Below, piece by piece: positions 11,429 through 46,346 of a stretch of DNA of 64,000 nt. How positions within the stretch are numbered: the first letter of the stretch is position 1; each line of letters opens with the position of its first letter. The DNA is from Candidatus Amphirhobacter sp. (GTDB taxonomy: Bacteria > Pseudomonadota > Gammaproteobacteria > Tethybacterales > Tethybacteraceae), in the NCBI GenBank assembly GCA_965222035.1, contig OZ244940.1:1529537-1593536 (forward strand), in the 5' to 3' direction. Under the pieces are notes generated by a model, which saw only the letters and a program-made list of their open reading frames with translations, did no database searches and was not told the DNA's origin. The position numbers and the translations under genes are program-made.

Positions 11429-12643
<1,215 letters not shown>

Positions 12644-12645
12644 GA

Positions 12646-24090: not shown

Positions 24091-24915
24091 ATGGCTACTG
24101 ATTCGACTGGCGAGAAACCTACCGCAGGTTTGCGCCACCCGCCGCTCGAACGTCTCATCGACGCTTATCACGACGGCCGCTTCGCCGACGCCATCAAGGG
24201 CTTCCGCCGCCTCGCGCGCCAGGGCAACGCCCGCGCCTCTTACTATCTCGGCGAGATGTACAAGGAAGGGCTCGGCGTCAAAGTCAACCTCACCAAGGCC
24301 TTCGAGCTGTTCCGCGATTCAGCCCGGCGCGATGACAGCGACGGCATGGTCGCGCTCGCCGACGCCTATTTGCGCGGCGAAGGCGTCGAGCGCGACGCGC
24401 ACCTCGCCGGCGTCTATTACCAGCGCGCCGCCGAGCAGGGCAACTCCGAAGGCTGGCGCAGCCTGGGTGACATGTACTTCCGCGGCGAAGGCGTCGATCG
24501 CGACTACGTCCGGGCCTACGGCCTGTACCGCCAGGCCGACCGCCACGAGCACCCCTGGGCGCAGTACCGCCTCGGCCTGTGCCACCTCGAGGGCCTGGGC
24601 GTGCGCACCAACCTGGGCAAGGCGCTCAAGTACCTCATGCTGGCCGCCGCCCGCGGCGTCATCGCCGCCAAGTACCAGCTGGGCCTGATGCATCTCGACG
24701 GCCGCGGCGTCGATCGCGACCCGGCCTTCGGCTATCGCTACATCCTCGAAGCGGCGCTCGCGGACACCGCCAACCCGGCCGGCGAGCTGCTGAGCCAGAC
24801 CCTCGGCTGCGACATCCGGGACATGGATCCCGCCGAGATCGTGCGGCGGGCCTATCGCCTGATCCACGTCGCGCCGACGCGCCGGCACCGCGCGCCCGCC
24901 GGCACCGTCAACTAA
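24091..24915 (+). CDS. Sel1-repeat (TPR-like) protein
   Basis: Multiple Sel1 repeats (A..YLGEMYKEGLGV..N...A, A.AYLRGEGVERD, LGDMYFRGEGVDRD, LGLCHLEGLGV, LGLMHLDGRGV). Confidence 0.8.
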   Translation: MATDSTGEKPTAGLRHPPLERLIDAYHDGRFADAIKGFRRLARQGNARASYYLGEMYKEGLGVKVNLTKAFELFRDSARRDDSDGMVALADAYLRGEGVERDAHLAGVYYQRAAEQGNSEGWRSLGDMYFRGEGVDRDYVRAYGLYRQADRHEHPWAQYRLGLCHLEGLGVRTNLGKALKYLMLAAARGVIAAKYQLGLMHLDGRGVDRDPAFGYRYILEAALADTANPAGELLSQTLGCDIRDMDPAEIVRRAYRLIHVAPTRRHRAPAGTVN

Positions 24916-28206: not shown

Positions 28207-29409
28207 TCAGCCTTGCTGCGCGGCCCGCTGTTTCTTGGCTTGCACGTACGTGAAGAACGAAGGGATGCCGGCCTCCATCTGGTCTTCATCCCCCTCCCAG
28301 ATGAAGCCTAGCCACTGCAAGCTATCAACGATTTCCCGAGCCTTTTCCGCGTCGATATCGCTGTTCTTCTGCCGCAAATCGTACTCAATGGTCTCTCGCT
28401 CTGCCTTGGCCTCTTCTTGCCGGTGGATGGTCTCGGCTACCTGCAAGGCATATGGCGTGAGTTCTTTATCGTTCATCTCCTTATAGATTTTGCGGTAGAA
28501 ATACTTGCGCTCCGTCCTTATCGCTCCTTGGGCTTTCTCCACCAGCGCGACGTCGACGCGCCGCTTCCCCTTGGAAGGCAGGGTCTCCCAGACCTCCGCC
28601 CCCACCAGCTGGACGAAATAAGGGTAGTTGTCAGTCATGCCCCACATCATCTCCAAGGCCTCCGGCTCGACCTCGATGCCGCGGACGGTGAACGGCTTGC
28701 TGAGCGCGTCCTTGCTCTCCTCGGTCGCCAGCAGGTTGATGTAGATGTCCTTGCTCCTTGTGATGAAGGTAGCGCCGATCTTCATCAGATAACTGTTCAA
28801 ATCCGGAGTACCCGCAAGCAGCATCACCAAAGGGTACTTCGCATTGATCAGCCGCTGCCCAATATGCAGCATGAAACCCATGATGTCTTCTTCATAATGA
28901 TGGGCCTCGTCCATTAGCAGGACCATGGGCCCCTTGCGCAGCCTGGCATGCAGAACCTCCTCGTAAGTTTCAGCGGCCTTTCCCAGGTCCAGGCGGACGC
29001 CGAGATCGGCATAGGAAACCTGGAAGCCCGTCACCCTCTTCAGCCACTTCAGCAAGAAATGATCCTTGCCGGCTATCTCCTTGAGCAGGCGCCCCATCGC
29101 ATCGCCTGCCGTCAGGTTCTTGACATGCGCCAGCCGCGCCACGTGGATGCCCTCCTCCTGGGCCCGCTCCTCCATCCAGCCAAGCAGCAGCGTCTTGCCC
29201 ACCCCGCGGGGACCGGTTAGCACCACCGGCGTCATCGACGTATCTTCCAGCAAGCCATTTTTCTGGATCTCGCTCGGGGCGATGCCTTGCAGGGCTCTGT
29301 TCAGCAGCTTGAATTCTCTCTTCCGGCCGACGACATGCTGCGGACGGGTCCCGGCACCGGGAGCAAACGGGTTTTTGTTCTGTTTGGCGGGCGAGGCAGA
29401 CATAACCAT
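28207..29409 (-). CDS. P-loop NTPase of the Arch_ATPase/AAA_16-like family (paralog B1)
   Basis: NPFAPGAGTRPQHVVGRKREF, Walker A TGPRGVGKTLL, Walker B VLLMDEAHH and C-terminal GIPSFFTYVQAKKQRAA. Confidence 0.7.
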   Translation of the reverse strand: MVMSASPAKQNKNPFAPGAGTRPQHVVGRKREFKLLNRALQGIAPSEIQKNGLLEDTSMTPVVLTGPRGVGKTLLLGWMEERAQEEGIHVARLAHVKNLTAGDAMGRLLKEIAGKDHFLLKWLKRVTGFQVSYADLGVRLDLGKAAETYEEVLHARLRKGPMVLLMDEAHHYEEDIMGFMLHIGQRLINAKYPLVMLLAGTPDLNSYLMKIGATFITRSKDIYINLLATEESKDALSKPFTVRGIEVEPEALEMMWGMTDNYPYFVQLVGAEVWETLPSKGKRRVDVALVEKAQGAIRTERKYFYRKIYKEMNDKELTPYALQVAETIHRQEEAKAERETIEYDLRQKNSDIDAEKAREIVDSLQWLGFIWEGDEDQMEAGIPSFFTYVQAKKQRAAQQG

Positions 29410-29568: not shown

Positions 29569-30389
29569 CTAGTTTCTACCCTGCTTCGCGGCCCGCTGTT
29601 TCTTGGCTTGTATATAGGTGAAGAACGAAGGGATGCCAATCTCCAGCCGGTCTTCCTCTCCGCGCCAGATGAAACCCAGCCACCGCAGGCGCTCGACAAT
29701 GCTCCTGGCATCTGCCGCGCCTAGATCGCTGTTCTCTTGCTGCAGAACGATCTCGATGTCCTTCACCCCCACTGCGGCGCATTGTTGCCGGGTGATGGCT
29801 TCGGCTGCCTGCAAGGCATATGATGTGAGACCTTTAGTACTCATCTCATCATAGAGCAGGCTGAAGAAATCCCTGAGGTCGTCGCTTAGCTCCCCTTGCA
29901 CTTGATCGAACAGCGCGACATCTACTTGCCGCCTCCCTTCTTTGGGCAAGGATTTCCAGATCTCCGCTCCCACCAGCTGGACGAAATACGGATAGTTGTC
30001 AGTCATGCCCCACATCATCTCCAGAGCCTCCGGCTCGACCTCAATTCCCCGGTCGGCGAACGGCTTCCTGAGCCCGTCCTTGCTCTCCTCGGTCGCCAGC
30101 GAATTGATGTGAATCACCTCGCTGCGTTCCAGGAACCCCGCGTCGATCTTATTCAGATAGCTGAGCAGGTCCGGCGTGCCCCCCCCCGCGGGCCCGTCAG
30201 CACCAACGGTGCCATTGACGGACGCTCTAGCAGGCCATCTTCCTGGATCTTGCACCTGTCAATGCCTTGCAAGGCCCCTTCTAGCAGGGCAAACTCTCTC
30301 TTGCGGCCAGCGACATGCTCCGGGCGGTGCCCGGTCCCGGGAGTAAATGGTTTTTTCCTCCGCTTGGCAGGCTGGGCGATCATAACCAT
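29569..30389 (-). pseudogene. ATPase paralog B2 disrupted by an internal deletion of about 380 nt plus a frameshift
   Basis: An N-terminal fragment (30153..30389, ending just after Walker A: LTGPRGGARR) and a C-terminal fragment (29569..30255, starting at the post-Walker-B region ...TPDLLSYL...) lie in different frames. The Walker B region is missing. Confidence 0.65.
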
Positions 30390-30545: not shown

Positions 30546-31757
30546 CTAGCCTCCATTCTCCGTTGCGGCCTGCTTTTTTTTGGCTTGCAGGTAGGTGAAG
30601 AAAGAGGGAATGCCAGCTTCCATGCGGTCTTCCTCTCCCTGCCAGATGAAACCTATCCTCTGCAGGCTATCGACAATGTCCATGGCTTCGTCTTCGCTGA
30701 GCTTCTTATTGCTCTTCCTCAAATCGTTCTCAATGGTCTCGCGCTCCGCCCTGGCGTCCTGTTGTCGGTTGATGGTCTCAGCTGCCCGCAAGGCATGTGA
30801 TGTGAGCTTGCCCTTATACAGCTCGGCATAGATGTCTCGGTAGAAATACTTGTGCTTGCGGCTTATGGCCATCTTGGCCTGCTCCACTAGCGCGACATCG
30901 ACGCGCCGTTTTTCGTCGTCTTTGGGCAATAACTTCCAGACCTCCGCCCCCACCAGCTGGACGAAATAAGGGTAATTGTCGGTCATGCCCCACATTATCT
31001 CCAGGGCCTGTGGCTCGACCTCGATGCCGCGGTTGGCGAACGGCTCGCTGAGCGCTTCCTTGCTTTCCTCGGTCGCCAGCAAGTTGATGTAGATTTTCTC
31101 ACTCCTTGACATGAACGTCGCTTCGATGTTCGTCAGATAGCTAGGCAGATCCGGAGTGCCCGCCAACAATATCACCAAAGGGTACTTCTCGTTAATCAGT
31201 CGCTGCCCGCTCTGCAGCATGAATCCCATGATGTTTTCTTGGTAATGATGGGCCTCGTCCATCAGCAAGGCCAAGGGACCCTGGCTCAGCCGGGCCCGCA
31301 AAACTTGCTCGAAACCGTCAGCGGGGTCATCGCGAAGGTCCACGCCTAAGCCGAAGCCGGGAATGGATGCATTGAAGCCCTTCACCGCCTTCAGTGCCTT
31401 CTTGTCCGCGCCGCGGGCCAGCTCTTTGAGCAGGCGCCCCATCGCATCGCCTGCCATCAGGTCCTTGGCATGCGCCAGCCGCGCCACATTGATCTCCATC
31501 TCCTGGGCCCGTTCCTGCATCCAGGTGAGCAACAGCGTCTTGCCCACCCCGCGCGGGCCGGTGAGCACTATCGGCGGTGTCAAATCATGCTCCAGCAGGC
31601 CATCTTCTTCCCGGACCTCGCTCGGAGCGATGCTTTGCAGGGCATCCTCCAGCACGTCGAACACATCCTCCCGGCCGGCGACATACTCCGGGGTGTGCCC
31701 GGTACCGGGAGTGAATGGTTTTTTTCTCCGCTTGGCAGGCTGGGAAGTCATAACCAT
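30546..31757 (-). CDS. P-loop NTPase of the Arch_ATPase/AAA_16-like family (paralog B3)
   Basis: KPFTPGTGHTPEYVAGREDVF, Walker A TGPRGVGKTLL, Walker B ALLMDEAHH and C-terminal GIPSFFTYLQAKKKQAA. Confidence 0.7.
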   Translation of the reverse strand: MVMTSQPAKRRKKPFTPGTGHTPEYVAGREDVFDVLEDALQSIAPSEVREEDGLLEHDLTPPIVLTGPRGVGKTLLLTWMQERAQEMEINVARLAHAKDLMAGDAMGRLLKELARGADKKALKAVKGFNASIPGFGLGVDLRDDPADGFEQVLRARLSQGPLALLMDEAHHYQENIMGFMLQSGQRLINEKYPLVILLAGTPDLPSYLTNIEATFMSRSEKIYINLLATEESKEALSEPFANRGIEVEPQALEIMWGMTDNYPYFVQLVGAEVWKLLPKDDEKRRVDVALVEQAKMAISRKHKYFYRDIYAELYKGKLTSHALRAAETINRQQDARAERETIENDLRKSNKKLSEDEAMDIVDSLQRIGFIWQGEEDRMEAGIPSFFTYLQAKKKQAATENGG

Positions 31758-33768: not shown

Positions 33769-35349
33769 TCAGCGATTGATGGGTGGCGGCAGGACCTTGG
33801 CGGAGTGCCGCCAGAGGGGCTCGTCATAATAGGTTGGGACGTAGTCGTCGCTGTAGACTAGCAAGTCCCTCAAGTCCTTGTAAATCCTGAGCATCCCGAT
33901 TCGCCTGACGGGGGCATAATTAGTGTCAAGGACAACAACGCCATAGGTGAGGAGGTGTGAGAACAATTTCCGGTCCGGGTGCTTGGATTGGATGTCTTGG
34001 AACTTCTCTTTATCATAGATGGGGACATTGCGATGCAGGTAGTAGTAGCTGAAATGCTGCATATCAAAATACACACCTTCTAAATCCTCTTGTTCATGCA
34101 GCCAGGTGAGGCCGGCAAAGAAGCCAGGGGTGTTGTGCAGGTAGCCGAGCTGGTAGGGGTCTTTGTCAAAGCTCCCGACCTTGTAGATCCAATTGTCCTT
34201 GACGTAGCCGAGCGCGACCAGCAAGCCGAAGACCAGCTGCAAGGCGATCAGGCCGCGGGTCAGGTCATGGCGCAGCTCGCGCAGCTGGGCGTGGCGGAAC
34301 CAGGTGCTCAACAGCCAAGCCGCGGTCGGCATCCACAGGAAGAACATCGGCGCCACATAGCGGAATTCCTTGTGGGGAGATAGCATGTGCGGCAGCATGA
34401 TCGCCAGTGCCATCAGCAGGGTCAGCAGATGCAGGCGCGGCCGCCACAGCCAGGCGAGGACGGCGAGCAGGATGTAGCCAGCCGAGATGAACAGCAGCCG
34501 CTGAGGGTAGAAGATCTCGCCGCCGCCTCTGTGGAAGTCCTCCGGTGGATTGAGATTCCACAGCATGTGCATGTAGATCGAGTTGAACGGGCGTCCCCAG
34601 GTGAGGAAATCCAGCAAGCCGTAGGCGAGTATGGCCAGCAGTCCACCTGCGATAGAACGCAAGGCCCAGCGTGCGGGCATGGCTGCGGCCACCGCCAGCC
34701 ACAGGATGCCGAGCGCCGGCAGGTAGAGGTAGCGCAGGAAGGCGGCGACGCCGAGCATGATGCCGAATACCCAGGCGCCGGCGTCGCCGCGGATGAAGGG
34801 CCGGCCAGCCAGGCCCATGGCCGATGCTAGCATCACGCCGGCCAGCATGCCGGTCAGGGTCTTGGCCGCGAAGGCCAGCAGATAGAAGTTAAAGACGCCG
34901 AGCAGCAGCGCGATCCGCCCGGCGACCTCGCCGTGCTGGTGCCGGGTGAAATGGTATAGGCCCCAGGGGATTAGCAATGAGAAAACACAGAAGAATGCCT
35001 CGACGAAGGGGACGTAGTAAGCGGGGTGGTCGATGCCCAGCCACTTGAACGGCAGCAGCAGCGCCGCGACGACGCCCGGCAGCAGATAGCTGCGCCCCCC
35101 CCAGTGTGATTCCCAGGTGATGATGCCATAGCCAAACGCCAGCCGATGTCCCTGCTCCAGGTATTGCTGGATTTCGTCGAGGTAGGCGATGAAGTCAGAG
35201 AACATATGCAGGCCGAGCCGCAGCAGCAGCGCCGCCGCCAGGCAATGCGGCAGGTAACGCCAGGACGGCTGGACCGTCGCGCCTGGCGCCTGGTACAGAT
35301 TGAGGTGGCGCAGCTGGAGCAGCATGTTGGAGATGACGTTCGTGCTCAT
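33769..35349 (-). CDS. GT-C membrane glycosyltransferase, GT22/PIG-B/Alg9-like, array copy 1 (distal); hallmark motif partly degenerate
   Basis: Multi-TM N-terminus with first-loop motif YLDEIQQYLEQGHRLAFGYGIITWESHWGGRSYLLPG (LDE/TWES instead of PDE/TWEW) and a C-terminal soluble domain of about 150 aa. Confidence 0.65.
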   Translation of the reverse strand: MSTNVISNMLLQLRHLNLYQAPGATVQPSWRYLPHCLAAALLLRLGLHMFSDFIAYLDEIQQYLEQGHRLAFGYGIITWESHWGGRSYLLPGVVAALLLPFKWLGIDHPAYYVPFVEAFFCVFSLLIPWGLYHFTRHQHGEVAGRIALLLGVFNFYLLAFAAKTLTGMLAGVMLASAMGLAGRPFIRGDAGAWVFGIMLGVAAFLRYLYLPALGILWLAVAAAMPARWALRSIAGGLLAILAYGLLDFLTWGRPFNSIYMHMLWNLNPPEDFHRGGGEIFYPQRLLFISAGYILLAVLAWLWRPRLHLLTLLMALAIMLPHMLSPHKEFRYVAPMFFLWMPTAAWLLSTWFRHAQLRELRHDLTRGLIALQLVFGLLVALGYVKDNWIYKVGSFDKDPYQLGYLHNTPGFFAGLTWLHEQEDLEGVYFDMQHFSYYYLHRNVPIYDKEKFQDIQSKHPDRKLFSHLLTYGVVVLDTNYAPVRRIGMLRIYKDLRDLLVYSDDYVPTYYDEPLWRHSAKVLPPPINR

Positions 35350-36926
35350 GGTTTGATGGGCGGCGGTAGGATTTTAGCGGAATGCTGCCAGAGAGGCTCG
35401 TCATAATAGGTTGGGACGTAGTCGTCGCTGTAGACTGGCAAGTCCCTCAAGTCCTTGTAAATCCTGAGCATCCCGATTCGGCTGACGGGGGCATAATTAG
35501 TGTCAAGGACAACAACGCCATAGGTGAGGAGGTGTGAGAACAATTTCCGGTCCGGGTGCTTGGATTGGATGTCTTGGAGCTTCTCTTTATCATAGATGGG
35601 GACATTGCGATGCAGGTAGTAGTAGCTGAAATGCTGCATATCAAAATACACACCTTCTAAATCCTCTTGTTCTTGCAGCCAGGTGAGGCCGGCAAAGAAG
35701 CCAGGGGTGTTGTGCAGGTAGCCGAGCTGGTAGGGGTCTTTGTCAAAGCTCCCGACCTTGTAGATCCAATTGTCCTTGACGGCGCCAAGCGCTACCAGCA
35801 TCCCGAAAATCAGCTGGATGCCAATCAGGCCGCGGGTCAGGTCATGGCGCAGCTCGCGCAGCTGGGCGTGGCGGAACCAGGTGCTCAACAGCCAGGCCGC
35901 GGTCGGCATCCACAGGAAGAACATCGGCGCCACATAGCGGAATTCCTTGTGGGGAGATAGCATGTGCGGCAGCATGATCGCCAGTGTCATCAGCAGGGTC
36001 AGCAGATGCAGGCGCGGCCGCCACAGCCAGGCGAGGACGGCGAGCAAGATGTAGCCAGCCGAGATGAACAGCAGCCGCTGAGGGTAGAAGATCTCGCCGC
36101 CGCCTCTGTGGAAGTCCTCCGGCGGGCTGAGGTTCCACAGCATGTGCATGTAGATCGAGTTGAACGGGCGTCCCCAGGTGAGGTAATCGAGCAAGCCATA
36201 GGCGAATATGGCCAGCAGTCCACCTGCGATAGAACGCAAGGCCCAGCGTGCGGGCATGGCTGCGGCCACCGCCAGCCACAGGATGCCGAGCGCCGGCAGG
36301 TAGAGGTAGCGCAGGAAGGCGGCGACGCCGAGCATGATGCCGAATACCCAGGCGCCGGCGTCGCCGCGGATGAAGGGCCGGCCAGTCAGGCCCATGGCCG
36401 CCGCCAGCACCACGCCGGACAGCATGCCGGTCAGGGTCTTGGCCGCGAAGGCCAGCAGGTGGAAGTTGACGACGCCGAGCAGCAGCGCAATCCGCCCGGC
36501 GGTCTCGCCGTGCTGCTGCCGGGTGAAATGGTACAGCCCCCATGGAATCAGCAGCGAGACGATGCAGAAGAAGGCTTCGACGAAGGGGACGTAGTAAGCG
36601 GGGTGGTCGATGCCCAGCCACTTGAACGGCAGCAGCAGCGCCGCGACGACGCCCGGCAGCAGATAGCTGCGCGCCCCCCAGTGCCATTCCCAGGTTGTCA
36701 GGCCGTAGCCGAAGGCCAATCGATGCCCCTGCTCCAGATACTGATACAACTCGTCCGGATAAGTGATGAAGTCTGAGAACATATGCAGCCCGAGCCGCAG
36801 CAGCAGCGCCGCGGCCAGGCAATGTGGCAGGTAGCGCCAGGACGGCTGGGTCGTTGGTCCGGGAGCTTGGTAAAGTCCAAGGCGGCGCAGCTGGAGAAGC
36901 ATGCTAGGGATGGTGCTTGCGCTCAA
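35346..36926 (-). CDS. GT-C membrane glycosyltransferase, GT22/PIG-B/Alg9-like, array copy 2
   Basis: YPDELYQYLEQGHRLAFGYGLTTWEWHWGARSYLLPG. It is nearly identical to copy 1 over long stretches and has a 4-nt overlap with its neighbours. Confidence 0.7.
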   Translation of the reverse strand: MSASTIPSMLLQLRRLGLYQAPGPTTQPSWRYLPHCLAAALLLRLGLHMFSDFITYPDELYQYLEQGHRLAFGYGLTTWEWHWGARSYLLPGVVAALLLPFKWLGIDHPAYYVPFVEAFFCIVSLLIPWGLYHFTRQQHGETAGRIALLLGVVNFHLLAFAAKTLTGMLSGVVLAAAMGLTGRPFIRGDAGAWVFGIMLGVAAFLRYLYLPALGILWLAVAAAMPARWALRSIAGGLLAIFAYGLLDYLTWGRPFNSIYMHMLWNLSPPEDFHRGGGEIFYPQRLLFISAGYILLAVLAWLWRPRLHLLTLLMTLAIMLPHMLSPHKEFRYVAPMFFLWMPTAAWLLSTWFRHAQLRELRHDLTRGLIGIQLIFGMLVALGAVKDNWIYKVGSFDKDPYQLGYLHNTPGFFAGLTWLQEQEDLEGVYFDMQHFSYYYLHRNVPIYDKEKLQDIQSKHPDRKLFSHLLTYGVVVLDTNYAPVSRIGMLRIYKDLRDLPVYSDDYVPTYYDEPLWQHSAKILPPPIKP

Positions 36927-38476
36927 CGCCTGATGGGCGGCGGCAGGATCTTGGCAGAGTGCTTCCAGTTATCGTCCGAGGCAAAATCGGAACTGTAATC
37001 TTCGGTGTAAAGCGGACCAGTCCTAACATCTTCGTAGATTTTCGCACTGCCGATTTGCTTGACCAGGCGCAAGGAGGGCGAGGAAATCAGATTATAGGTG
37101 AGGATGTGCGAGACCAGTTTCTTGTCGGGGTTCTGCTTGGTGGCATGATCGAACATCGACAGATTGTAAATAGGAATATTGCGATGCAGGTAGTAGTAAT
37201 TAAAATTATGCACGGCAAACAATATGCCTTTCACATCATCTTGTTCTCGTATCCAGGCGATGGCAGGAAAGAAGTCGGGAGTGTTGTGGAAATAGCCGAG
37301 CTCGTTGTTGTCTTTGACATAGTCGCCGACGCTGTAAATCCAGTTATCATTGACGGTGTCGGACGCGACCAGCATGCTGAAAATCAGTTGAATGCCAATC
37401 AGGACGCGCGTTAGGTCATGGCGGTAAGGACGCACCCGGGCGCGCCGGCTCCAGATGCTGAGCAGCCAGGCCGCGGCCGGCATCCACAGGAAGAACAGCG
37501 GTGCCACATAGCGGAACTCCTTGTGGACGGTCAGCATGTGCGGCAACAGGATAGCCAGGTACAGCAGCATGGTCAGCAGATGCCGGCGCGGTTGCCGCAG
37601 CCAGGCGAGGATGGTAAGCGCGAGGCAGCCGGCCGAGATGAACAGCAGCCGCTGTGGATAGAAGATCTCGCCGCCGCCGGTGTGAAAGCCCTCCGGCGGG
37701 CTGAGGTTCCATAGCATGTGCATGTAGATTGAGTTGAACGGCCGCCCCCAGGTGAGATAGTCGAGCAATCCATATGCGATCACCACCAGCATCCCGCCAG
37801 CGATGGAGCGCAAGACCCAGCGCGCGGGCATGGCTATGGCGACCGCCAGCCACAGGATGCCGATGGCGGGCAGGTAGAGGTAGCGCAGGAAGAAGGCGAA
37901 GCCGAGCAGGATGCCGAACAGCCAGGCGCCCGCGTCGCCGCGGATGAATGGCCGTCCCGCCAAACCCATCGCGGCCGCCAGCATCACGCCTGACAGTGTC
38001 TCGGTCAAGGTTTTGGCCGCGAAGGTTATCAGGTAGAAGCTGACGACGCCGAGCAGCAATGCGATCCGCCCGGCGGCCTCGCCGTACTGATGCCGGGTGA
38101 AGTGGTACAGACCCCAGGGGATCAACAGCGAGACAACGCAGAAGAAGGCTTCGACGAAGGGGACGTAATAGGCGGGATGGTCGATGCCTAGCCACTTGAA
38201 TGGCAGCAACAGGGCGGCGACGACCCCGGGCAGCAGATAGCTGCGTGCCCCCCAGTGCCATTCCCAGATCGTAATGCTGTAACCGAAGGCCAGCCGATGG
38301 CCTTGCTCTTGGTAATGCCAGATTTCATCCGGAAAGGCGATGAAGTCCGAGAAGATATGCAGCCCAAGCCGCAGCAGCAGTGCGACAATCAGGCAATGAG
38401 GCAGGTAGCGCCATGACGGCTGGGGAGTCGTACCTGGCGCTTGGTACAGATTGAGGCTGTGCAGTTGGGCAAGCAT
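36923..38476 (-). CDS. GT-C membrane glycosyltransferase, GT22-like, array copy 3
   Basis: FPDEIWHYQEQGHRLAFGYSITIWEWHWGARSYLLPG. Confidence 0.7.
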   Translation of the reverse strand: MLAQLHSLNLYQAPGTTPQPSWRYLPHCLIVALLLRLGLHIFSDFIAFPDEIWHYQEQGHRLAFGYSITIWEWHWGARSYLLPGVVAALLLPFKWLGIDHPAYYVPFVEAFFCVVSLLIPWGLYHFTRHQYGEAAGRIALLLGVVSFYLITFAAKTLTETLSGVMLAAAMGLAGRPFIRGDAGAWLFGILLGFAFFLRYLYLPAIGILWLAVAIAMPARWVLRSIAGGMLVVIAYGLLDYLTWGRPFNSIYMHMLWNLSPPEGFHTGGGEIFYPQRLLFISAGCLALTILAWLRQPRRHLLTMLLYLAILLPHMLTVHKEFRYVAPLFFLWMPAAAWLLSIWSRRARVRPYRHDLTRVLIGIQLIFSMLVASDTVNDNWIYSVGDYVKDNNELGYFHNTPDFFPAIAWIREQDDVKGILFAVHNFNYYYLHRNIPIYNLSMFDHATKQNPDKKLVSHILTYNLISSPSLRLVKQIGSAKIYEDVRTGPLYTEDYSSDFASDDNWKHSAKILPPPIRR

Positions 38477-38496
38477 GCTGGAAACGGACCCTTCGC

Positions 38497-40050
38497 TCAG
38501 CGCTTGCTGGGCGCGGGCAGGACCTTGGCGGAGTTCTGCCAGTTGGGATCTGTTGAGTAATCGGAACTGTAATCTTCAGTGTAGATTGGGCCAGCCCTCA
38601 CATCCTCGTAGATCTTCGCACTGCCGATTTGCTTGACCAGGCGCAAATAAGGCGAGGAAAACAGATGATAGGTGAGGATGTGCGAGACCAGTTTCTTGCC
38701 GGGGTTCTGCTTGGTGGCATGATCGAACATCGACAGATTGTAAATAGGAATATTGCGATGCAGGTAGTAGTAATTAAAATTATGCACGGCAAACAATATG
38801 CCTTTCACATCATCTTGTTCTCGCAGCCAGGCGATGGCGGCGAAGAAATCGGGAGTGTTGTGCAAATAGCCGAGCTCGTCATTGTCCTTGTTGCTACCAC
38901 TGACATCGTAAACCCAGTAATCATTGACGGAGCCGGACGCGATCAGCATGCCGAAGGCCAGCTGAATGCCGACCAGGACGCGTACCAGGTCATGACGATA
39001 CCGGCGCAGCCGGGCGCGGCGGACCCAGTCGCTGAGCAGCCATCCTGCAGCTGGCATCCACAGGAAGAACAGCGGCGCCACAAAGCGGAACTCCTTGTGG
39101 GTGGCGAGCATGTGCGGCAGCAGGATGGACAGCGCCATTAGCAAGGTCAGCAGATGCAGGCGCGGACGTCGCAGCCAGGCGAAGATGGCGAGCAGGAAGC
39201 CGCCGGCCGAGATGAACAGCAGCCGCTGCGGATACACGAGCACGTCCCGTCCCGAATGGTAACCTTCAGTAGGATTGAAATTCCACAGCATATGTATGTA
39301 GATGGAGTTGAACGGCCGTCCCCAAGTGAGGAAATCAAGCAAGCCGTAGGCGATAATCGCCAGCAACCCTCCCGCTATTGAGCGGAGGGCCCAGCGTGCG
39401 GGCATGGTGATGGCGACCGCCAGCCACAGGATGCCGATGGCGGGCAGGTAGAGGTAGCGCAGGAAGAAGGCGAAGCCGAGCAGGATGCCGAACAGCCAGG
39501 CGCCCGCGTCGCCGCGGATGAATGGCCGTCCCGCCAAACCCATCGCGGCCGCCAGCATCACGCCTGACAGTGTCTCGGTCAAGGTTTTGGCCGCGAAGGT
39601 TATCAGGTAGAAGCTGACGACGCCGAGCAGCAATGCGATCCGCCCGGCGGCCTCGCCGTACTGATGCCGGGTGAAGTGGTACAGACCCCAGGGGATCAAC
39701 AGCGAGACAACGCAGAAGAAGGCTTCGACGAAGGGGACGTAATAGGTGGGATGGTCGATGCCTAGCCATTTGAACGGCAGCAGCAAAGCGGCGACGATTC
39801 CGGGCAGCAGATAGCTGCGCGCCCCCCAGTGCCATTCCCAGATCGTAATGCTGTAGCCGAAGGCCAGCCGATGGCCTTGCTCTTGGTAATGCCAGAGTTC
39901 ATCCGCAAAGGTGATGAAGTCGGAGAACATATGGAGGCCGAGCCGCAGCAGCAGTGCGGCTACCAGGCAATGCGGCAGGTACCGCCAGGACGGCTGGAAC
40001 GTCGTACCCGGCGCCTGGTGCATTCCCAGGCGACGCAGCTGTAGGATCAT
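38497..40050 (-). CDS. GT-C membrane glycosyltransferase, GT22-like, array copy 4
   Basis: FADELWHYQEQGHRLAFGYSITIWEWHWGARSYLLPG. The start is set at the conserved MILQLRRL; the ORF track extends to 40155. Confidence 0.65.
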   Translation of the reverse strand: MILQLRRLGMHQAPGTTFQPSWRYLPHCLVAALLLRLGLHMFSDFITFADELWHYQEQGHRLAFGYSITIWEWHWGARSYLLPGIVAALLLPFKWLGIDHPTYYVPFVEAFFCVVSLLIPWGLYHFTRHQYGEAAGRIALLLGVVSFYLITFAAKTLTETLSGVMLAAAMGLAGRPFIRGDAGAWLFGILLGFAFFLRYLYLPAIGILWLAVAITMPARWALRSIAGGLLAIIAYGLLDFLTWGRPFNSIYIHMLWNFNPTEGYHSGRDVLVYPQRLLFISAGGFLLAIFAWLRRPRLHLLTLLMALSILLPHMLATHKEFRFVAPLFFLWMPAAGWLLSDWVRRARLRRYRHDLVRVLVGIQLAFGMLIASGSVNDYWVYDVSGSNKDNDELGYLHNTPDFFAAIAWLREQDDVKGILFAVHNFNYYYLHRNIPIYNLSMFDHATKQNPGKKLVSHILTYHLFSSPYLRLVKQIGSAKIYEDVRAGPIYTEDYSSDYSTDPNWQNSAKVLPAPSKR

Positions 40051-40069
40051 GCTGGAACGGCGCTCGCGC

Positions 40070-41623
40070 TCAGCGTTTAATGGGCGCAGGCAGCACCTTG
40101 GCGGAGTGCCGCCATAGAGGTTCTTCATAATATATCGGATTGTAGTCATCGGCAACCGCCTGGTCCATTGCCATGTTCTTATAGATGCGAGCCAGCCCGA
40201 TGCGTTTGATCAAGGAGAAGCCAGGAGTGTCTAGTTGGTTATAGGTGAGCACATGCGAGACGAGTTTCTTGCCCGGGTGCTTGCTTGAGGCGTATTTTAG
40301 TCGTTCCAAGTTGTAAACAGGAACATTGCGGTGCAGATAATAGTAGTTGAAATTGTTGCCGCCGTAAAAAACTCCTTGCAGGTCTTCTTGCTCGTGCAGC
40401 CACGCAATGCCGGCGAAAAAGTCAGGGGTGTTGTGCAGGTAGCCGAGTTGGTCGGCGTCCTTGTCATAGTCGCCGACCTTGTAAATCCAGTAATCATTGA
40501 CGGCGCCAGTCGCAACCAGCAAGCCAAAAATCAGTTGGCTGGCGATTAGGATGCGAGCCAGATCATGGCGATAAGGGCGCAGCCGGGCGCGCCGGCTCCA
40601 GACGCTGAGCAGCCAGGCCGCGGCCGGCATCCAGAGGAAGAACAGCGGTGCCACAAAGCGGAACTCCTTGTTAGGGGCAAGCATGTGCGGCAAAAGGATG
40701 GCCAGGGATATCAGGATGGTCAGCAGATGCAGACGCGGGAGCCGTATCCAGGCGAAAATAGTGAGTAAGATGCCGCCGGCCGAAACGAATAACAGCCGCT
40801 GTGGATGAAAGATTTCACCGCCGCCAGAGTGAAAATCTTCCGGCGGGCTGAGGTTCCATAGCATGTGCATGTAGATTGAGTTGAACAGCCGCCCCCAGGT
40901 GAGATAGTCGAGCAATCCATATGCGATCACCACCAGCATCCCGCCAGCGATGGAGCGCAAGATCCAGCGCGCGGGCATGGCTATGGCGACCGCCAGCCAC
41001 AGGATGCCGATGGCGGGCAGGTAGAGGTAGCGCAGGAAGAAGGCGAAGCCGAGCAGGATGCCGAACAGCCAGGCGCCCGCGTCGCCGCGGATGAACGGCC
41101 GCCCCGCCAAACCCATCGCCGCCGCCAGCATCACGCCTGACAGTGTCTCGGTCAAGGTTTTGGCCGCGAAGGCTATCAGGTAGAAGCTGACGACGCCGAG
41201 CAGCAATGCGATCCGAGCAGCGGTCTCGCCGTGCTGGTGTCGGGTGAAATGGTACAGGCCCCACGGAATCAGCAGCGATAAAACGCAGAAGAATGCCTCG
41301 ACGCAGGGTACGTAATAGGCGGGATGGTCGATGCCTAGCCATTTGAACGGCAGCAGCAAAGCGGCGATGATCCCTGGCAGCAGATAGCTGCGTGCGCCCC
41401 AGTGCCACTCCCATAGAACGACGCCGTAACCAAAGGCCAGTTTATGGCCTTGCTCCAGGTAATGATGTAGTTCGTCTGGATAGGCGATGAAGTCGGAGAA
41501 CATATGAAGGCCGAGTCGCAGCAGCAGCGCAGCGGCTAGGCAATGCGGCAGATAGCACCAGGATGGCCTGCTCTTTGGCCCCGGTGCTTGGTACAGGTTT
41601 AGGCTCCGCAGGTAGGTTGCCAT
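40070..41623 (-). CDS. GT-C membrane glycosyltransferase, GT22-like, array copy 5
   Basis: YPDELHHYLEQGHKLAFGYGVVLWEWHWGARSYLLPG. The start is set at MATYLRSLNLYQAPG. Confidence 0.65.
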   Translation of the reverse strand: MATYLRSLNLYQAPGPKSRPSWCYLPHCLAAALLLRLGLHMFSDFIAYPDELHHYLEQGHKLAFGYGVVLWEWHWGARSYLLPGIIAALLLPFKWLGIDHPAYYVPCVEAFFCVLSLLIPWGLYHFTRHQHGETAARIALLLGVVSFYLIAFAAKTLTETLSGVMLAAAMGLAGRPFIRGDAGAWLFGILLGFAFFLRYLYLPAIGILWLAVAIAMPARWILRSIAGGMLVVIAYGLLDYLTWGRLFNSIYMHMLWNLSPPEDFHSGGGEIFHPQRLLFVSAGGILLTIFAWIRLPRLHLLTILISLAILLPHMLAPNKEFRFVAPLFFLWMPAAAWLLSVWSRRARLRPYRHDLARILIASQLIFGLLVATGAVNDYWIYKVGDYDKDADQLGYLHNTPDFFAGIAWLHEQEDLQGVFYGGNNFNYYYLHRNVPVYNLERLKYASSKHPGKKLVSHVLTYNQLDTPGFSLIKRIGLARIYKNMAMDQAVADDYNPIYYEEPLWRHSAKVLPAPIKR

Positions 41624-41627
41624 GCTG

Positions 41628-43184
41628 TCAACGTTTGATTGGCGAGGGCAGGAACTTGGCGGAGTGCTGCCATAGGATTTCATCCTCATATGTCGGGATG
41701 TAGTCATCGACGAACACCTGCCCTTCTCTGGAATCTTTATAGAGATAGACTTCGCCTATTTTATGCACTAGCTGAAAGCCAGGCTTATTGATTGGATTGT
41801 AGGCGATGACATGGGAAATTAGTTTCTTGCCTGGATGCTTTCGGGAAGCGAGGCCGAGCTTGACCAAATCATAGATGGGAACATCACGATGCAGATGGTA
41901 GTAGTTGAAATTGTCCTCACTGAAAAACACACCTTCTAAATCCTCTTGTTCATGCAGCCAGGCGAGGCCGGCGAAGAAGTCCGGGGTATTGTGCAGGTAT
42001 CCGAGCTGGTTGTTGCCTTTGTCAATATGCCCGACTTTGTAGATCCAATTATCCTTGACGGCGCCAAGCGCGACCAGCATGCCAAAGGCCAGCTGGGTGC
42101 CGATCAGGACGCGGGTAAGGTCATGGCGGTACCGGCGCAGCCTGGCGCGGCGGCCCCAGTCGCTGAGCAGCCAGCCGGCAGCCGGCATCCACAGGAAGAA
42201 CAGCGGCGCCACATAGCGGAACTCCTTGTGGTAAGTAAGCATGTGCGGCAGCAGGACGGCTAGGGACAGCAGTATGGCCAGCAAATGCGGGCGCGGCTGA
42301 CGCAGCCAGGCAAACAAGGCAAGCAGGATGCCTCCAGCTGAGACGAATAGCAGCCGCTGCGGGTAGAAAATCCCGTCGCCGGTATGGAAGCCTTCCTTGT
42401 CCACTGGATTGAGGTGCCAAACCAAGTGAGCGTAAATCGAGTTGAAAGGCCGTCCCCAGGTGAGGTAATCGAGCAAGCCGGCGGCGAGTACGGCCATCAT
42501 TCCCCCTGCGATGGAGCGCAAGGCCCAGCGCGAAGGCATGGCGACCGCGACCGCCAGCCACAGGATGCCAAGGACGGGCAGGTAGAGATAGCGCAGGAAG
42601 GCGGCGATGCCGAGCACGATTCCGAACAACCAAGCGCCGGCGTCGCCGCGGATGAACGGCCGGCCGGCCAGGCCCATCGCCGCCGCCAGCATTGTTGCGG
42701 TTAGTATGTCGGTCAGGGTCTTGGCCGCGAAGGCCAGCAGGTAGAAGTTGACGACGCCGAGCAGCAGGGCAATCCGAGCAGCGGCCTCGCTGTGATGGTG
42801 CCGGGTGAAGTGGTACAGCCCCCAGGGGAGCAGCAGCGAGAAAACGCAGAAGAAGGCCTCGACGACAGGCACGTAGTAGACAGGATGATCGAAGCCTAGC
42901 CACTTGAACGGCAGCAGCAGCCCAGCGATGATCCCTGGCAGCAGGTAGCTGTGCGTGCCCCAGTTCCACTCCCAGGTGATAAGGCCGTAGCCGAAGGCCA
43001 GTCGATGTCCCTGCTCCAGGTACTGATACAGTTCATCCGGATAGGAGATGAAGTCGGAGAACATATGCAGCCCGAGCCGCAGCAGCAGCGCCACAATCAG
43101 GCAATGCGGCAAGTAGCGCCAGGACGGTTGGGCCGTCGTACCAGGCGCTTGGTATATTCCCATGCGGCGCAGTTGAAGAATCAT
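41628..43184 (-). CDS. GT-C membrane glycosyltransferase, GT22-like, array copy 6
   Basis: YPDELYQYLEQGHRLAFGYGLITWEWNWGTHSYLLPG. The start is set at MILQLRRMGIYQAPG. Confidence 0.65.
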   Translation of the reverse strand: MILQLRRMGIYQAPGTTAQPSWRYLPHCLIVALLLRLGLHMFSDFISYPDELYQYLEQGHRLAFGYGLITWEWNWGTHSYLLPGIIAGLLLPFKWLGFDHPVYYVPVVEAFFCVFSLLLPWGLYHFTRHHHSEAAARIALLLGVVNFYLLAFAAKTLTDILTATMLAAAMGLAGRPFIRGDAGAWLFGIVLGIAAFLRYLYLPVLGILWLAVAVAMPSRWALRSIAGGMMAVLAAGLLDYLTWGRPFNSIYAHLVWHLNPVDKEGFHTGDGIFYPQRLLFVSAGGILLALFAWLRQPRPHLLAILLSLAVLLPHMLTYHKEFRYVAPLFFLWMPAAGWLLSDWGRRARLRRYRHDLTRVLIGTQLAFGMLVALGAVKDNWIYKVGHIDKGNNQLGYLHNTPDFFAGLAWLHEQEDLEGVFFSEDNFNYYHLHRDVPIYDLVKLGLASRKHPGKKLISHVIAYNPINKPGFQLVHKIGEVYLYKDSREGQVFVDDYIPTYEDEILWQHSAKFLPSPIKR

Positions 43185-43203
43185 GCTGGAGGTTGTGCCA
43201 CGC

Positions 43204-44757
43204 TCAACGCTTGACAGGCGGAGGCAGGATCTTGGCGGAGTGCTGCCAGAAGCGTTCATCAGGATAAGTCGGGACGTAGTCTGCGCTGTAAATTGGCAAA
43301 TCCCTTATGTCTTTGTAAATCCTGACGTTGCCGATTCTTTTGACGAGAACGTAATCGGGCTTAATCAAAGCGGCATAGGTGATGACGTGCGAAAACAGTT
43401 TCCGGCCGGGGTGCTTGAGCTGGGCGTTTTCCAATTTCCACTCATCATAGATGGGAACATCGCGATGTAGATAATAGTAGCTGAAATTATTTACATTGAA
43501 ATAAACACTCTCCACATCCTCTTGCTCATGCAGCCAGGCGATGCCGGCGAAAAAATCCGGCGTGTTGTGCAGATAGCCGAGCTCGACGTTGCCTTTGCCA
43601 ATATCCCCGACTTCGTAGATCCAATTGTCATTGATGGCGCCAAGCGCTACTAGTACGCCGAAGGCCAGCTGGATGCCAATCAGGCCGCGCATCAGGTCAT
43701 AGCGACACCAGCGCAGCCGGGCGCGGCGGCCCCAGCCGCTGACCAGCCAGCCAGCGGCCGGCATCCACAGGAAGAACAGCGGCGCTACATAGCGGAACTC
43801 CTTGTGGACGGTCAGCATGTGCGGCAGGAGGATAGCCAGGTACAGCAGCATGAGCAGCAGATGCAGGCGCGGTTGCCGCAGCCAGGCGATGATGGTAAGA
43901 ACGATGCAGCCGGCCGAGATGAACAGCAGCCGCTGTGGATAGAAGGATTCGCCGCCGCCGCTGTGGAAGCCCTCCGGTGGATTGAGATTCCACAGCATGT
44001 GCATGTAGATCGAGTTGAACGGGCGTCCCCAGGTGAGGTAATCGAGCAAGCCATAGGCGAATATGGCCAGCAGCCCGCCCGCGATCGAGCGCAGAGTCCA
44101 TCGCGCGGGCATGGTGATAGCGACCGCCAGCCACAGGATGCCGAGCGCTGGCAGATAGAGATAACGCAGGAAAGCGGCGACGCCGAGCAGGATGCCGAAC
44201 AGCCAGGCGCCGGCGTCGCCGCGGATGAACGGCCGGGAGGCCAGGCCCATGGCCGCCGCCAGCATGGTACCGGCCATGATCTCGGTCAACGTCTTGGCCG
44301 CGAAGGCCAGCAGGTAGAAGTTGACGACGCCGAGCAGCAGCGCGATCCGCCCGGCGGTCTCGCCGTACTGCTGCCGGGTGAAATGGTACAGCCCCCATGG
44401 AATCAGCAGCGAGACGATGCAGAAGAAGGCTTCGACGAAGGGGGCGTAATATGACGGATGGTCGATCCCCAGCCACTTGAACGGCAGCAGCAACGCCGCG
44501 ACGATGCCGGGCAGCAGATAATTGCGCGCGCCCCAGTGCCATTCCCAAAAGACGAGGCCGTAGCCGAACGCCAGCCTATGTCCCTGCTCCAGGTATTGGT
44601 GCAGTTCATCCGGGTAGACGACGAAGTCGGAGAACATATGCAGCCCGAGCCGCAGCAGCAGCGCCGCAAGCAGGCAATGCGGCAGGTAGCGCCAGGACGG
44701 CTGGACCGTCGCACCAGGCGCTTGGTACAGGTTGAGGCGGCGTAGCTGAAGAATCAT
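43204..44757 (-). CDS. GT-C membrane glycosyltransferase, GT22-like, array copy 7
   Basis: YPDELHQYLEQGHRLAFGYGLVFWEWHWGARNYLLPG. Confidence 0.7.
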   Translation of the reverse strand: MILQLRRLNLYQAPGATVQPSWRYLPHCLLAALLLRLGLHMFSDFVVYPDELHQYLEQGHRLAFGYGLVFWEWHWGARNYLLPGIVAALLLPFKWLGIDHPSYYAPFVEAFFCIVSLLIPWGLYHFTRQQYGETAGRIALLLGVVNFYLLAFAAKTLTEIMAGTMLAAAMGLASRPFIRGDAGAWLFGILLGVAAFLRYLYLPALGILWLAVAITMPARWTLRSIAGGLLAIFAYGLLDYLTWGRPFNSIYMHMLWNLNPPEGFHSGGGESFYPQRLLFISAGCIVLTIIAWLRQPRLHLLLMLLYLAILLPHMLTVHKEFRYVAPLFFLWMPAAGWLVSGWGRRARLRWCRYDLMRGLIGIQLAFGVLVALGAINDNWIYEVGDIGKGNVELGYLHNTPDFFAGIAWLHEQEDVESVYFNVNNFSYYYLHRDVPIYDEWKLENAQLKHPGRKLFSHVITYAALIKPDYVLVKRIGNVRIYKDIRDLPIYSADYVPTYPDERFWQHSAKILPPPVKR

Positions 44758-44775
44758 GCTGGAGGTTGTGCCACG

Positions 44776-46326
44776 TCAACGCTTGATAGGCGGCGGCAGG
44801 ATCTTGGCGGAGTGCTGCCAGTTGGGTCCCTCATAATACCTTGAATTGTAGCCGTCGATGTAGGTCGGCGTATCTCTGATGTCTTTGTAAATCCTGACGT
44901 TGCCGATTCTTTTGGCGAGAACGTAATCGGGATTAATCAAAGCGCTATAGGTGATGATGTGCGAAAACAGTTTCTGGCCGGGGTGCTTGAGCTGGGCGTC
45001 TTTCAATGTCCAGCTATTATAGATGGGGACATCGCGATGCAGATAATAGTAGTTGAAATTATTCACATTGAAATAAACGCTCTCCACATCCTCTTGCTCA
45101 TGCAGCCAGGCGATGCCGGCGAAAAAATCCGGCGTGTTGTGCAGATAGCCGAGCTGGTCGTTGACTTTGTCAATATGCCCGACCTTGTAGACCCAATTGT
45201 CATTGATGGCGCCAAGCGCTACTAGCACGCCGAAGGCCAGCTGGATGCCAATCAGGCCGCGCGCTAGGTCATGGCGATACCAGCGCAGCCGGGCGCGGCG
45301 GCTCCCGCTGACCAGCCAGCTAGCAGCCGGCATCCACAGGAAGAACAGCGGTGCCACATAGCGGAACTCCTTGTGGACGGTCAGCATGTGCGGCAACAGG
45401 ATAGCCAGGTACAGCAGCATGGTCAGCAGATGCCGGCGCGGTTGCCGCAGCCAGGCGAGGATGGTAAGCGCGAGGCAGCCGGCCGAGATGAACAGCAGCC
45501 GCTGTGGATAGAAGATCTCGCCGCCGCCGGTGTGAAAGCCCTCCGGTGGATTGAGGTTCCACAGCATGTGCATGTAGATCGAGTTGAACGGACGTCCCCA
45601 GGTGAGGAAATCGAGCAAGCCGTAGGCGATTATCGCCAGCAACCCGCCCGCGATCGAGCGCAAGGCCCAGCGTGCGGGCATGGTTGCGGCGACTGCCAGC
45701 CACAAAATGCCGAGCGCCGGCAGGTAGAGATAACGCAGGAAAGCGGCGACGCCGAGCAGGATGCCGAACAGCCAGGCGCCAGCGTCGCCGCGGATGAACG
45801 GCCGGCCCGTCAGGCCCATCGCCGCCGCCAGCATCACGCCGGCCAGCATGCCGGTCAGCGTCTTGGCTGCGAAGGCCAGCAGGTGGAAGCTGACGACGCC
45901 GAGCAGCAGCGCGATCCGCCCGGCGGCCTCGCCGTACTGCTGCCGGGTGAAATGGTACAGCCCCCACGGAATCAGCAGCGAGACGATGCAGAAGAAGGCT
46001 TCGACGAAGGGAACGTAATAGGAGGGATGGTCGATGCCCAGCCACTTGAACGGCAGCAGCAGTGCCGCGACGATGCCGGGCAGCAGATAATTGCGCGCGC
46101 CCCAGTGCCACTCCCCAAAGACGAGGCCGTAGCCGAACGCCAGCTTGTGTCCTTGCTCCAGGTACTGCTGCAGCTCGTCCGGATAGGCGACGAAGTCCGA
46201 GAACATATGCAGCCCGAGCCGCAGCAGCAGCGCCGCGATCAGGCAATGCGGCAGGTAGCGCCAGGATGGCTGGACCGTCGTACCAGGCGCTTGGTACAGG
46301 TTGAGGCGGCGCAGCTGGAGAAGCAT
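44776..46326 (-). CDS. GT-C membrane glycosyltransferase, GT22-like, array copy 8
   Basis: YPDELQQYLEQGHKLAFGYGLVFGEWHWGARNYLLPG (TWEW is replaced by FGEW). Confidence 0.7.
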   Translation of the reverse strand: MLLQLRRLNLYQAPGTTVQPSWRYLPHCLIAALLLRLGLHMFSDFVAYPDELQQYLEQGHKLAFGYGLVFGEWHWGARNYLLPGIVAALLLPFKWLGIDHPSYYVPFVEAFFCIVSLLIPWGLYHFTRQQYGEAAGRIALLLGVVSFHLLAFAAKTLTGMLAGVMLAAAMGLTGRPFIRGDAGAWLFGILLGVAAFLRYLYLPALGILWLAVAATMPARWALRSIAGGLLAIIAYGLLDFLTWGRPFNSIYMHMLWNLNPPEGFHTGGGEIFYPQRLLFISAGCLALTILAWLRQPRRHLLTMLLYLAILLPHMLTVHKEFRYVAPLFFLWMPAASWLVSGSRRARLRWYRHDLARGLIGIQLAFGVLVALGAINDNWVYKVGHIDKVNDQLGYLHNTPDFFAGIAWLHEQEDVESVYFNVNNFNYYYLHRDVPIYNSWTLKDAQLKHPGQKLFSHIITYSALINPDYVLAKRIGNVRIYKDIRDTPTYIDGYNSRYYEGPNWQHSAKILPPPIKR

Positions 46327-46346
46327 GCTGGGGACGGCGCCCGCGC

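Follow-up and report, generated by a model that had tools for sequence, protein, structure and literature searches.

A conserved C-terminal tail on ten tandem GT22-like glycosyltransferases of a Tethybacterales bacterium as a candidate acceptor-side module

The 64,000-nucleotide stretch of Candidatus Amphirhobacter sp. DNA analysed here (GCA_965222035.1, contig OZ244940.1, positions 1,529,537 to 1,593,536; hereafter the window, whose numbering is used throughout) carries on its minus strand, at 33769-49504, ten intact paralogs of glycosyltransferase family 22 (GT22; PF03901). They are arranged head-to-tail, and the subject of this study is the C-terminal part that all of them share. After the final transmembrane (TM) helix of the membrane module, the last 142-143 residues form a hydrophilic tail in 10/10 copies, as an initial annotation made from the sequence alone had stated. 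A tblastn search of the window with one tail and one membrane module gave exactly ten matches each, and found no orphan tails or orphan membrane modules there. The genes lie -4 to +20 nt apart and are flanked by housekeeping genes, with trpD and trpC on one side and ArsP_2, TldD, a CN hydrolase, an AAA_22 ATPase and YhdP on the other. The same synteny, trpD-trpC, array, ArsP_2-TldD, was found in two related metagenome contigs.

The ten open reading frames (ORFs), all on the minus strand, were listed as 516-552 codons long. In copy 1 (33769-35349), the tail of 143 amino acids plus stop occupies 33769-34200 and the membrane module 34201-35325. The initial annotation had placed this domain at 33769-34250; its start was correct, but the tail ends at 34200 and the rest is ~17 codons of the last TM helix. 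Copy 2 (35346-36926) has its tail, 94% identical in amino acids to that of copy 1, at 35346-35777 and its membrane module at 35778-36902. Tail and membrane module follow at 36923-37351 and 37352-38476 in copy 3 (36923-38476), at 38497-38925 and 38926-40053 in copy 4 (38497-40155), at 40070-40498 and 40499-41626 in copy 5 (40070-41707), and at 41628-42056 and 42057-43184 in copy 6 (41628-43259). The remaining copies are organised in the same way, at 43204-43632 and 43633-44757 in copy 7 (43204-44757), 44776-45204 and 45205-46326 in copy 8 (44776-46326), 46347-46775 and 46776-47900 in copy 9 (46347-47924), and 47921-48349 and 48350-49468 in copy 10 (47921-49504). 

The listed ORFs of copies 4-6 begin too far upstream, within the tail of the preceding gene and in another frame; copy 4 as listed, for example, starts at 40155, inside the copy 5 tail. 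Both alignment with the remaining copies and gene calls on the related contigs indicate internal ATG starts, likely at 40053, 41626 and 43184, which give proteins of ~517-519 amino acids. The resulting N-terminal extensions (40054-40155, 41627-41707 and 43185-43259; e.g. GSTPPRSCLR) look conserved, and a signal peptide was considered for them and rejected. They arise because the ORF listing reads the 3' ends of the upstream tails in a different frame, and are thus artefactual.

Alignment of the ten tails gave 39 invariant columns and a mean column identity of 71%, and their consensus reproduced the His/Tyr-rich motifs that had been quoted for the domain. The tails contain 9.6% Tyr and 4.9% His, compared with 1.8% and 1.7% in 15 housekeeping genes of the window, and are also rich in Asp, Lys and Asn. 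Part of this signature is kept across phyla: at 25% identity, H439, R440 and P443 are invariant, Y435 and L438 are conserved at >=90% in both alignments, and Y436, S464 and H465 reach >=90% only in the 45-sequence alignment.

The membrane module is a GT22 enzyme. In the copies scanned (1, 3, 4 and 8), PF03901 (Glyco_transf_22) matched residues ~30-385 only, with E-values in the order of 1e-20 to 1e-26 (copy 1, 4e-20; copy 3, 2e-26; copy 8, 3e-21) and scores of 72.7-93.4 bits against a cut-off of 23.8. PF03901 was the only Pfam family found in the full proteins at E<=1, and no family covers the tail. A phmmer search of the PDB with copy 1 returned nothing; a family profile of 45 sequences matched chicken ALG12 (4e-15) and human ALG9 (3.6e-9), with alignments that run up to the last TM helix. 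The AlphaFold2 model of full-length copy 1 had a mean predicted local distance difference test score (pLDDT) of 87.8 and a predicted TM-score of 0.89, with 85-91 in the tail core. Foldseek placed ALG12 first (9s6t, E 3e-9, TM-score 0.63/0.68), followed by ALG9 (9s6u/9s6s). Further matches of the full-length model were STT3, PglB, ArnT (TM-score 0.58) and AftD, which likewise bear C-terminal extramembrane domains.

The active site supports the same assignment. D82 is the catalytic residue of ALG9, and R67, R185 and R312 of ALG12 are donor-phosphate residues (PMC13503287). ALG9 D82, which is Ala in the deposited mutant, aligns with D58 of a conserved (P/L)DE motif (D58/E59 in copy 1) that is found in 10/10 copies, and the three ALG12 arginines align with R86, R206 and R330, all kept except for H86 in copy 6. 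Thus, the ten genes encode ALG9/ALG12-like GT-C(A) glycosyltransferases with an intact catalytic base. R271 of ALG12, a ligand of the acceptor pyrophosphate, aligns with R284 of a YPQR motif that is conserved in the clade and not in distant homologues, which hints at a lipid-pyrophosphate-linked acceptor. Two copies deviate locally: copy 6 (42057-43184) reads WGTHSY rather than WGARSY, placing His at the ALG12 R67 equivalent, and copy 5 (40499-41626) has NKEFRF in place of HKEFRY. Both changes may represent functional variants.

Mapping the AlphaFold2 helices of copy 1 onto ALG12 numbering predicted 11 TM helices in a 7+4 GT-C(A) fold with a non-cytoplasmic C-terminus. The predicted cytoplasmic loops of this topology carry 2-5 Arg each, in agreement with the positive-inside rule. 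Given the 11-TM topology by ALG12 homology and these Arg-rich loops, the tail is predicted to be periplasmic and to lie on the catalytic side, beside the first periplasmic loop that carries the catalytic Asp.

A C-terminal domain at this position is also present in the eukaryotic enzymes. In both ALG9 and ALG12, TM11 is followed by a C-terminal luminal domain, and the cavity in which ALG12 holds the acceptor B branch is made by luminal loop 1 (LL1) and this domain (PMC13503287). Our family profile stops aligning at residue 373/496 of the ALG12 chain and 425/617 of ALG9, leaving the C-terminal domains of both outside. Since the profile aligns up to the last TM helix, the bacterial tail occupies the same architectural position as the ALG tails. 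The statement that canonical GT22 enzymes lack this domain was therefore wrong at the level of architecture. A more limited statement does hold, namely that no sequence similarity between this tail and those of ALG9 and ALG12 could be detected and that Pfam has no model for it. The bacterial proteins thus share with ALG12 and ALG9 the PF03901 domain, a catalytic carboxylate in the first helix of loop 1, three donor-phosphate arginines and a C-terminal non-cytoplasmic domain. In contrast, the eukaryotic proteins are single dedicated enzymes, whereas ten tandem paralogs are present here.

The distribution of the tail was determined by an exhaustive HMMER search of 1.84 billion representative proteins with a ten-tail profile, which returned 13 matches at E<=1e-3. 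Six of these were full-length: five are PF03901 proteins that end in the tail, and the sixth (P0061), an unrelated FG-GAP/reprolysin protein, was matched over only ~35 positions and was taken as spurious. Of the other seven, four belonged to the array lineage or AqS1, and three were short or truncated proteins without a Pfam domain. A broader tail profile found only PF03901-annotated proteins and unannotated fragments. When a word-indexed protein search was run with tail profiles, it yielded short fragments for the most part and strongly underestimated the family, so that the exhaustive search and a genome scan are the usable measures. The tail first seemed to be a stand-alone protein in searches because of split-ORF fragments in the related contigs: one array member in each (L001 8917-10480, 363+159 amino acids; L002 9186-10738, 287+245 amino acids) appears as two overlapping ORFs, owing either to a frameshift in a pseudogene or to faulty assembly. 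The possibility that the domain is a common domain of unknown function (DUF) appended to unrelated proteins did not hold, as all usable tail matches were on GT22 proteins. As judged from these profile searches, the tail is an old, integral part of a bacterial GT22 subfamily and no promiscuous DUF.

The scan of species-representative genomes found 128 relatives of 28-51% identity that keep the [NGS]YY[YH]LHR motif. They occur in Gamma- and Alphaproteobacteria, Nitrospirales, Latescibacterota, Binatia, Acidobacteria, Chloroflexi, Thermodesulfobacteriota, Spirochaetota and cyanobacteria. The record titles of many name sponge symbionts (AqS2, Ca. Porisulfidus, Ca. Poriferihabitaceae), and the bins SB0661, COS4 and IRC1 are presumably sponge metagenome-assembled genomes (MAGs) as well, so that the family shows an apparent bias towards sponge symbionts. 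The closest named relatives, at ~50% identity, are proteins of the Amphimedon symbionts AqS1 and AqS2 (Ca. Amphirhobacter heronislandensis, Tethybacterales). Their tails are also the closest outside relatives of the tail (36-37%), and the same proteins are the closest for the membrane module. These and other uncharacterised bacterial GT22-like proteins (including MBF2735765.1 and its neighbours) have the same two-module architecture and tail motifs, and are automatically named 'phosphatidylinositol glycan class B' (PIG-B) or 'GPI mannosyltransferase 3' (GPI, glycosylphosphatidylinositol) in JGI. They too occur in tandem, with two copies in AqS2 and three or more in several MAGs. The window clade differs from them in having about ten copies and strongly AT-shifted tails. 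Tandem triplets of GT22 with tail are present in unrelated Alpha- and Gammaproteobacterial MAGs (L004, L018, L023, L028, L045 and L070), with an additional, fourth copy in L023 at 11764-13497. The family thus has a recurrent tendency to multiply in tandem, of which the ten copies described here are the most extreme case seen.

We then compared base composition between the two modules. The tails have a GC content of 0.47-0.52 (copy 1, 0.52; copy 3, 0.48; copy 10, 0.47), with 0.35-0.40 in the lowest 100-nt windows, and a GC content at third codon positions (GC3) of 0.59-0.72 (copy 1, 0.72; copy 3, 0.64; copy 6, lowest at 0.59). The corresponding values are 0.60-0.65 and 0.76-0.89 for the membrane modules and 0.68 and 0.88 for housekeeping genes, and the whole window has a GC content of 0.64. 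The tails are thus the lowest-GC stretches of the window, and AT-richer than the TM domain, as had been noted. This pattern was seen in 10/10 copies and recurred in the two related contigs, where 12 copies show it (GC3 ~0.83 in the TM module, ~0.67 in the tail); it is therefore not due to chance. When housekeeping codon usage was applied to the tail amino acid sequences, the expected GC was 0.54-0.58 and the expected GC3 0.86, well above the observed values, and amino acid composition as the sole cause of the dip was rejected. Indeed, the fraction of G/C-ending codons in tails and housekeeping genes was 0.43 and 0.83 for Asn, 0.57 and 0.91 for Lys, 0.63 and 0.89 for Phe, and 0.70 and 0.91 for Arg. 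The compositional anomaly proposed for the tail is thus real and partly synonymous: about half of the dip comes from the Tyr/Asn/Lys/Asp/Ile-rich amino acid composition and the remainder from a genuine shift in synonymous codon use.

An intrinsic property of the domain was likewise rejected as the cause, since the dip is absent in AqS2 and most homologues. The AqS2 homologue has a GC3 of 0.90/0.91 in the two modules, and in most distant homologues the modules differ by <=0.10. The dip is therefore specific to the clade of the window. Third-position changes polarised by a rough parsimony on ten triplets, which over-counts GC-to-AT changes in GC-rich sequence, gave GC-to-AT/AT-to-GC ratios of 460/183 in the TM module and 160/95 in the tail.

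The two modules also differ in how far the copies have diverged. Paralogs are 81% identical in amino acids over the TM module and 59% identical over the tail. For the TM module, median nonsynonymous (dN) and synonymous (dS) divergence were 0.12 and 0.46, respectively; the tail values were 0.31 and 1.15, the dS contrast being partly confounded by codon bias. The tails are thus ~2.5 times more diverged than the membrane modules at a similar dN/dS ratio (omega; 0.27 vs 0.25). A sliding-window scan revealed 100%-identical nucleotide tracts between different, non-adjacent copies, only in the TM module (34201-49468). In alignment codon columns, copy 3 is identical to copy 4 at ~138-217, to copy 5 at ~218-257 and to copy 8 at ~298-337, and copy 1 is 98% identical to copy 10 over ~118-157. 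The same scan found no mosaic tracts in the tails apart from the recent pairs 1/2, 3/4 and 7/8. These mosaic tracts indicate ongoing gene conversion among the membrane modules, which ends where the tail begins. The membrane modules thus undergo concerted evolution, whereas the tails keep older, independent histories under purifying selection; all ten copies are intact, and tail-specific orthologues are recognisable in related genomes.

Paralog identity and GC3 per 20-codon window were correlated (r = 0.73 overall, 0.71 in the TM module alone), although the two measures are partly coupled by construction and partly confounded by codon bias. The correlation is compatible with GC-biased conversion, or stronger constraint, keeping the membrane module GC-rich while the tails drift to AT. 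The synonymous part of the dip thus has the pattern of a clade-specific drift to AT in the segment that conversion leaves unhomogenised. AT-biased mutation, together with weaker GC-biased conversion or weaker selection, may account for at least part of this drift.

Taken together, we favour the reading that the tail is the periplasmic acceptor-side specificity module of ALG9/ALG12-like GT-C(A) enzymes and diverges between the copies, with a probability of roughly 0.6. The membrane module would bind a polyprenyl-phosphate sugar, probably mannose, and transfer it with inversion. By analogy with ALG12, the tail and loop 1 would form the acceptor-glycan pocket, in which the invariant Y-Y-x-L-H-R-x-x-P and S-H motifs would be the fixed core of the tail and its variable surfaces would give the ten paralogs different acceptor preferences. 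The outcome would be ten enzymes with one catalytic chassis and ten differing acceptor-side modules.

Other GT-C enzymes provide a precedent for this arrangement. In AglB, PglB and STT3, as well as in ArnT, the last TM helix is followed by a soluble domain of mixed alpha/beta structure that lies on the non-cytoplasmic side and contributes to acceptor binding. In contrast, the tail is much smaller than the PglB and STT3 domains and has no WWDYG-type motif, and its motifs YYYLHRDVP and VSH are unique to this family. Some short motif parallels to the ALG proteins serve as leads only: KEW-Y473-RFP of ALG9 resembles the bacterial YYLHRDVP, and SYTHILME of ALG12 and KCHYLVD of ALG9 resemble VSHIVT. 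Y473 of ALG9 stacks on an acceptor mannose.

Several results weigh against this assignment. The average omega of the tail showed no stronger positive selection there, and the divergence of the tails could simply be older. At the sequence level, hmmsearch with the tail profile found no match in the PDB at E<=10, and hhalign gave a probability of 0.1% for the ALG9 tail and 1.2% for the ALG12 tail, the sequences of which were recovered from the PDB with human sequences as queries. The fold comparison proposed in the initial annotation gave no significant match: the model of the isolated tail (pLDDT 75.9), a central sheet with flanking helices, had no Foldseek match in the PDB below E 0.1. Its best match was the C-terminal globular domain of archaeal AglB-S2 (3vu0, E 0.11, probability 0.82, TM-score 0.39), and it retrieved neither 9s6t nor 9s6u. 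The alignment of the full-length model to ALG12 spans 533 columns. Without sequence similarity or a significant fold match, homology to the eukaryotic luminal domains is unproven. No polyprenyl-P-mannose synthase gene was found in the 64-kb window, and the biases given above for the polarised changes, the dS contrast and the identity-GC3 correlation count on the same side.

Two more specific identities of the tail were considered and found no support. An STT3/AglB/PglB-type globular domain was not recovered, as the match to 3vu0 is insignificant and no WWDYG-like motif occurs in the ten tails. Neither a lectin nor a carbohydrate-binding module was found among the Pfam families at E<=1 or among the Foldseek matches of the isolated tail. 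The earlier suggestion of an acceptor-recognition or lectin-like module is thus plausible in its first part, while its lectin-like part found neither a Pfam nor a significant fold match.

Among the alternatives, the one that survives best, though we consider it unlikely, is that the tail is a structural or folding cap acting in stability, oligomerisation or membrane insertion, so that its divergence reflects weaker constraint and the ten copies are redundant and kept for dosage. Consistent with a cap, omega in the tail does not exceed that of the TM module, no carbohydrate-binding fold was recognisable, and the ends of the tail have low confidence when it is modelled alone and fold better in the full-length model. 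However, a mere cap would not readily account for motifs that are invariant across phyla at 25% identity, or for an enrichment in aromatic residues that is typical of sugar-binding surfaces. In ALG12, moreover, the luminal domain found at this position makes contact with acceptor branches, and all ten copies are kept intact, with tail-specific orthologues in related genomes.

A still less probable explanation is that the family or its tail was imported from a low-GC donor, the AT-rich tail being the least ameliorated remnant. Besides the low GC of the tails, this could explain why whole-gene GC3 (0.72-0.83) is somewhat below the housekeeping value of 0.88, and other multi-copy accessory genes of the window (AAA_22, HNH_4) also have a low GC3. 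The patchy distribution of the family over many phyla suggests old horizontal transfers. However, trpC and ArsP_2/TldD border the array both in the window and in the two related contigs, and its annotated neighbours showed neither an integrase nor a flanking tRNA. AqS1 and AqS2 are closest both for the tail and for the whole protein, with no domain swap evident, and the AqS2 homologue has native GC3 in both modules. The GC-to-AT bias, seen in both modules, points to decay and is the opposite of the amelioration of an AT-rich import. Compared with a recent genomic island, the array is atypical in composition only in the tails, has conserved synteny and shows no sign of amelioration. Thus, the clade-specific dip, the shared nearest relatives, the GC-to-AT excess and the conserved synteny do not support a recent foreign origin, and the claim in the initial annotation that composition points to a foreign origin of the whole family was not borne out, as the GC3 of the TM module is also near-native. 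Ancient transfers of the GT22+tail family between phyla are nonetheless likely, given its patchy distribution.

The idea that AT richness was selected at the nucleotide level, for internal promoters or for unstructured mRNA in translational coupling, is very improbable: although the genes are so closely spaced that each tail lies directly upstream of the next start, and 13 sigma-70-like matches were found, mostly within tails, against 6.4 +/- 2.3 expected, these matches, found on both strands, are uniformly weak (9 of 12) and would be expected in any AT-richer DNA, GC3 reaches its minimum 250-400 nt before the next start and increases again towards the 3' end, and the AqS2 homologue and most others have no dip.

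Among 77 homologous loci fetched, 33 have one to five PMT_2+TPR (TMTC-like) genes within 10 kb, often directly adjacent. Examples are L020 6582-9884 and L010 6065-8155, and the PMT_2 parts are 45-75% identical across phyla. No such gene was found in the window or in L001-L004. This neighbourhood suggests that the wider GT22+tail family acts in a periplasmic mannosylation pathway. A far-reaching version of the acceptor-side reading, which we regard as speculative and doubtful as a whole, is that the tail sets acceptor specificity in a bacterial, ALG-like assembly line for stepwise periplasmic synthesis of mannan or oligomannose. The ten tails would then correspond to ten acceptors or linkages on a chassis kept uniform by gene conversion, the product would be a mannose-rich, possibly eukaryote-like surface glycan for a probable sponge host, and members in other phyla would act beside TMTC-like PMT_2+TPR protein O-mannosyltransferases.

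Several other genes of the window were recorded. A phosphoglucomutase/phosphomannomutase gene at 58338-60431 (minus strand), 9 kb from the array and syntenic in L001, might be a source of mannose-1-phosphate, though it is a common housekeeping gene. Five AAA_22/AAA_16 ATPase paralogs, one of them a fragment, are scattered around the array at 1087-2283 (plus strand) and at 28207-29409, 29569-30255, 30546-31757 and 53052-54215 (minus strand). Their GC3 is reduced (0.71-0.77), and one such gene is also kept beside the array in L001. Three tandem paralogs of ~380 amino acids with an HNH_4 endonuclease domain lie at 15192-18624 on the minus strand (GC 0.56-0.59, GC3 0.71-0.83). A Sel1-repeat protein with five repeats is encoded at 24091-24915 on the plus strand. 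Such proteins are often counted among the eukaryote-like proteins of sponge symbionts, and its presence would fit the proposed lifestyle.

To our knowledge, almost all known GT22 enzymes act in the assembly of eukaryotic N-glycans and GPI anchors, and literature searches found nothing on bacterial or sponge GT22. A C-terminal acceptor-side domain in GT-C enzymes is as such already known, even though the part of the GT22 luminal domain in acceptor choice was shown only in 2026, and the tail would be an unmodelled bacterial version of it. What is new is a bacterial GT22 branch with its own tail, absent from domain databases and kept in many phyla, many of its members apparently sponge-associated. 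The tail merits its own family model, so that these proteins would no longer be labelled automatically as PIG-B or GPI mannosyltransferases. In addition, the array clearly exemplifies module-specific concerted evolution and illustrates that such evolution can make a sharp intragenic GC discontinuity that resembles horizontal transfer. With the tail as its diverging part, the ten-fold amplification is a natural experiment on how acceptor specificity may be encoded in GT-C enzymes.

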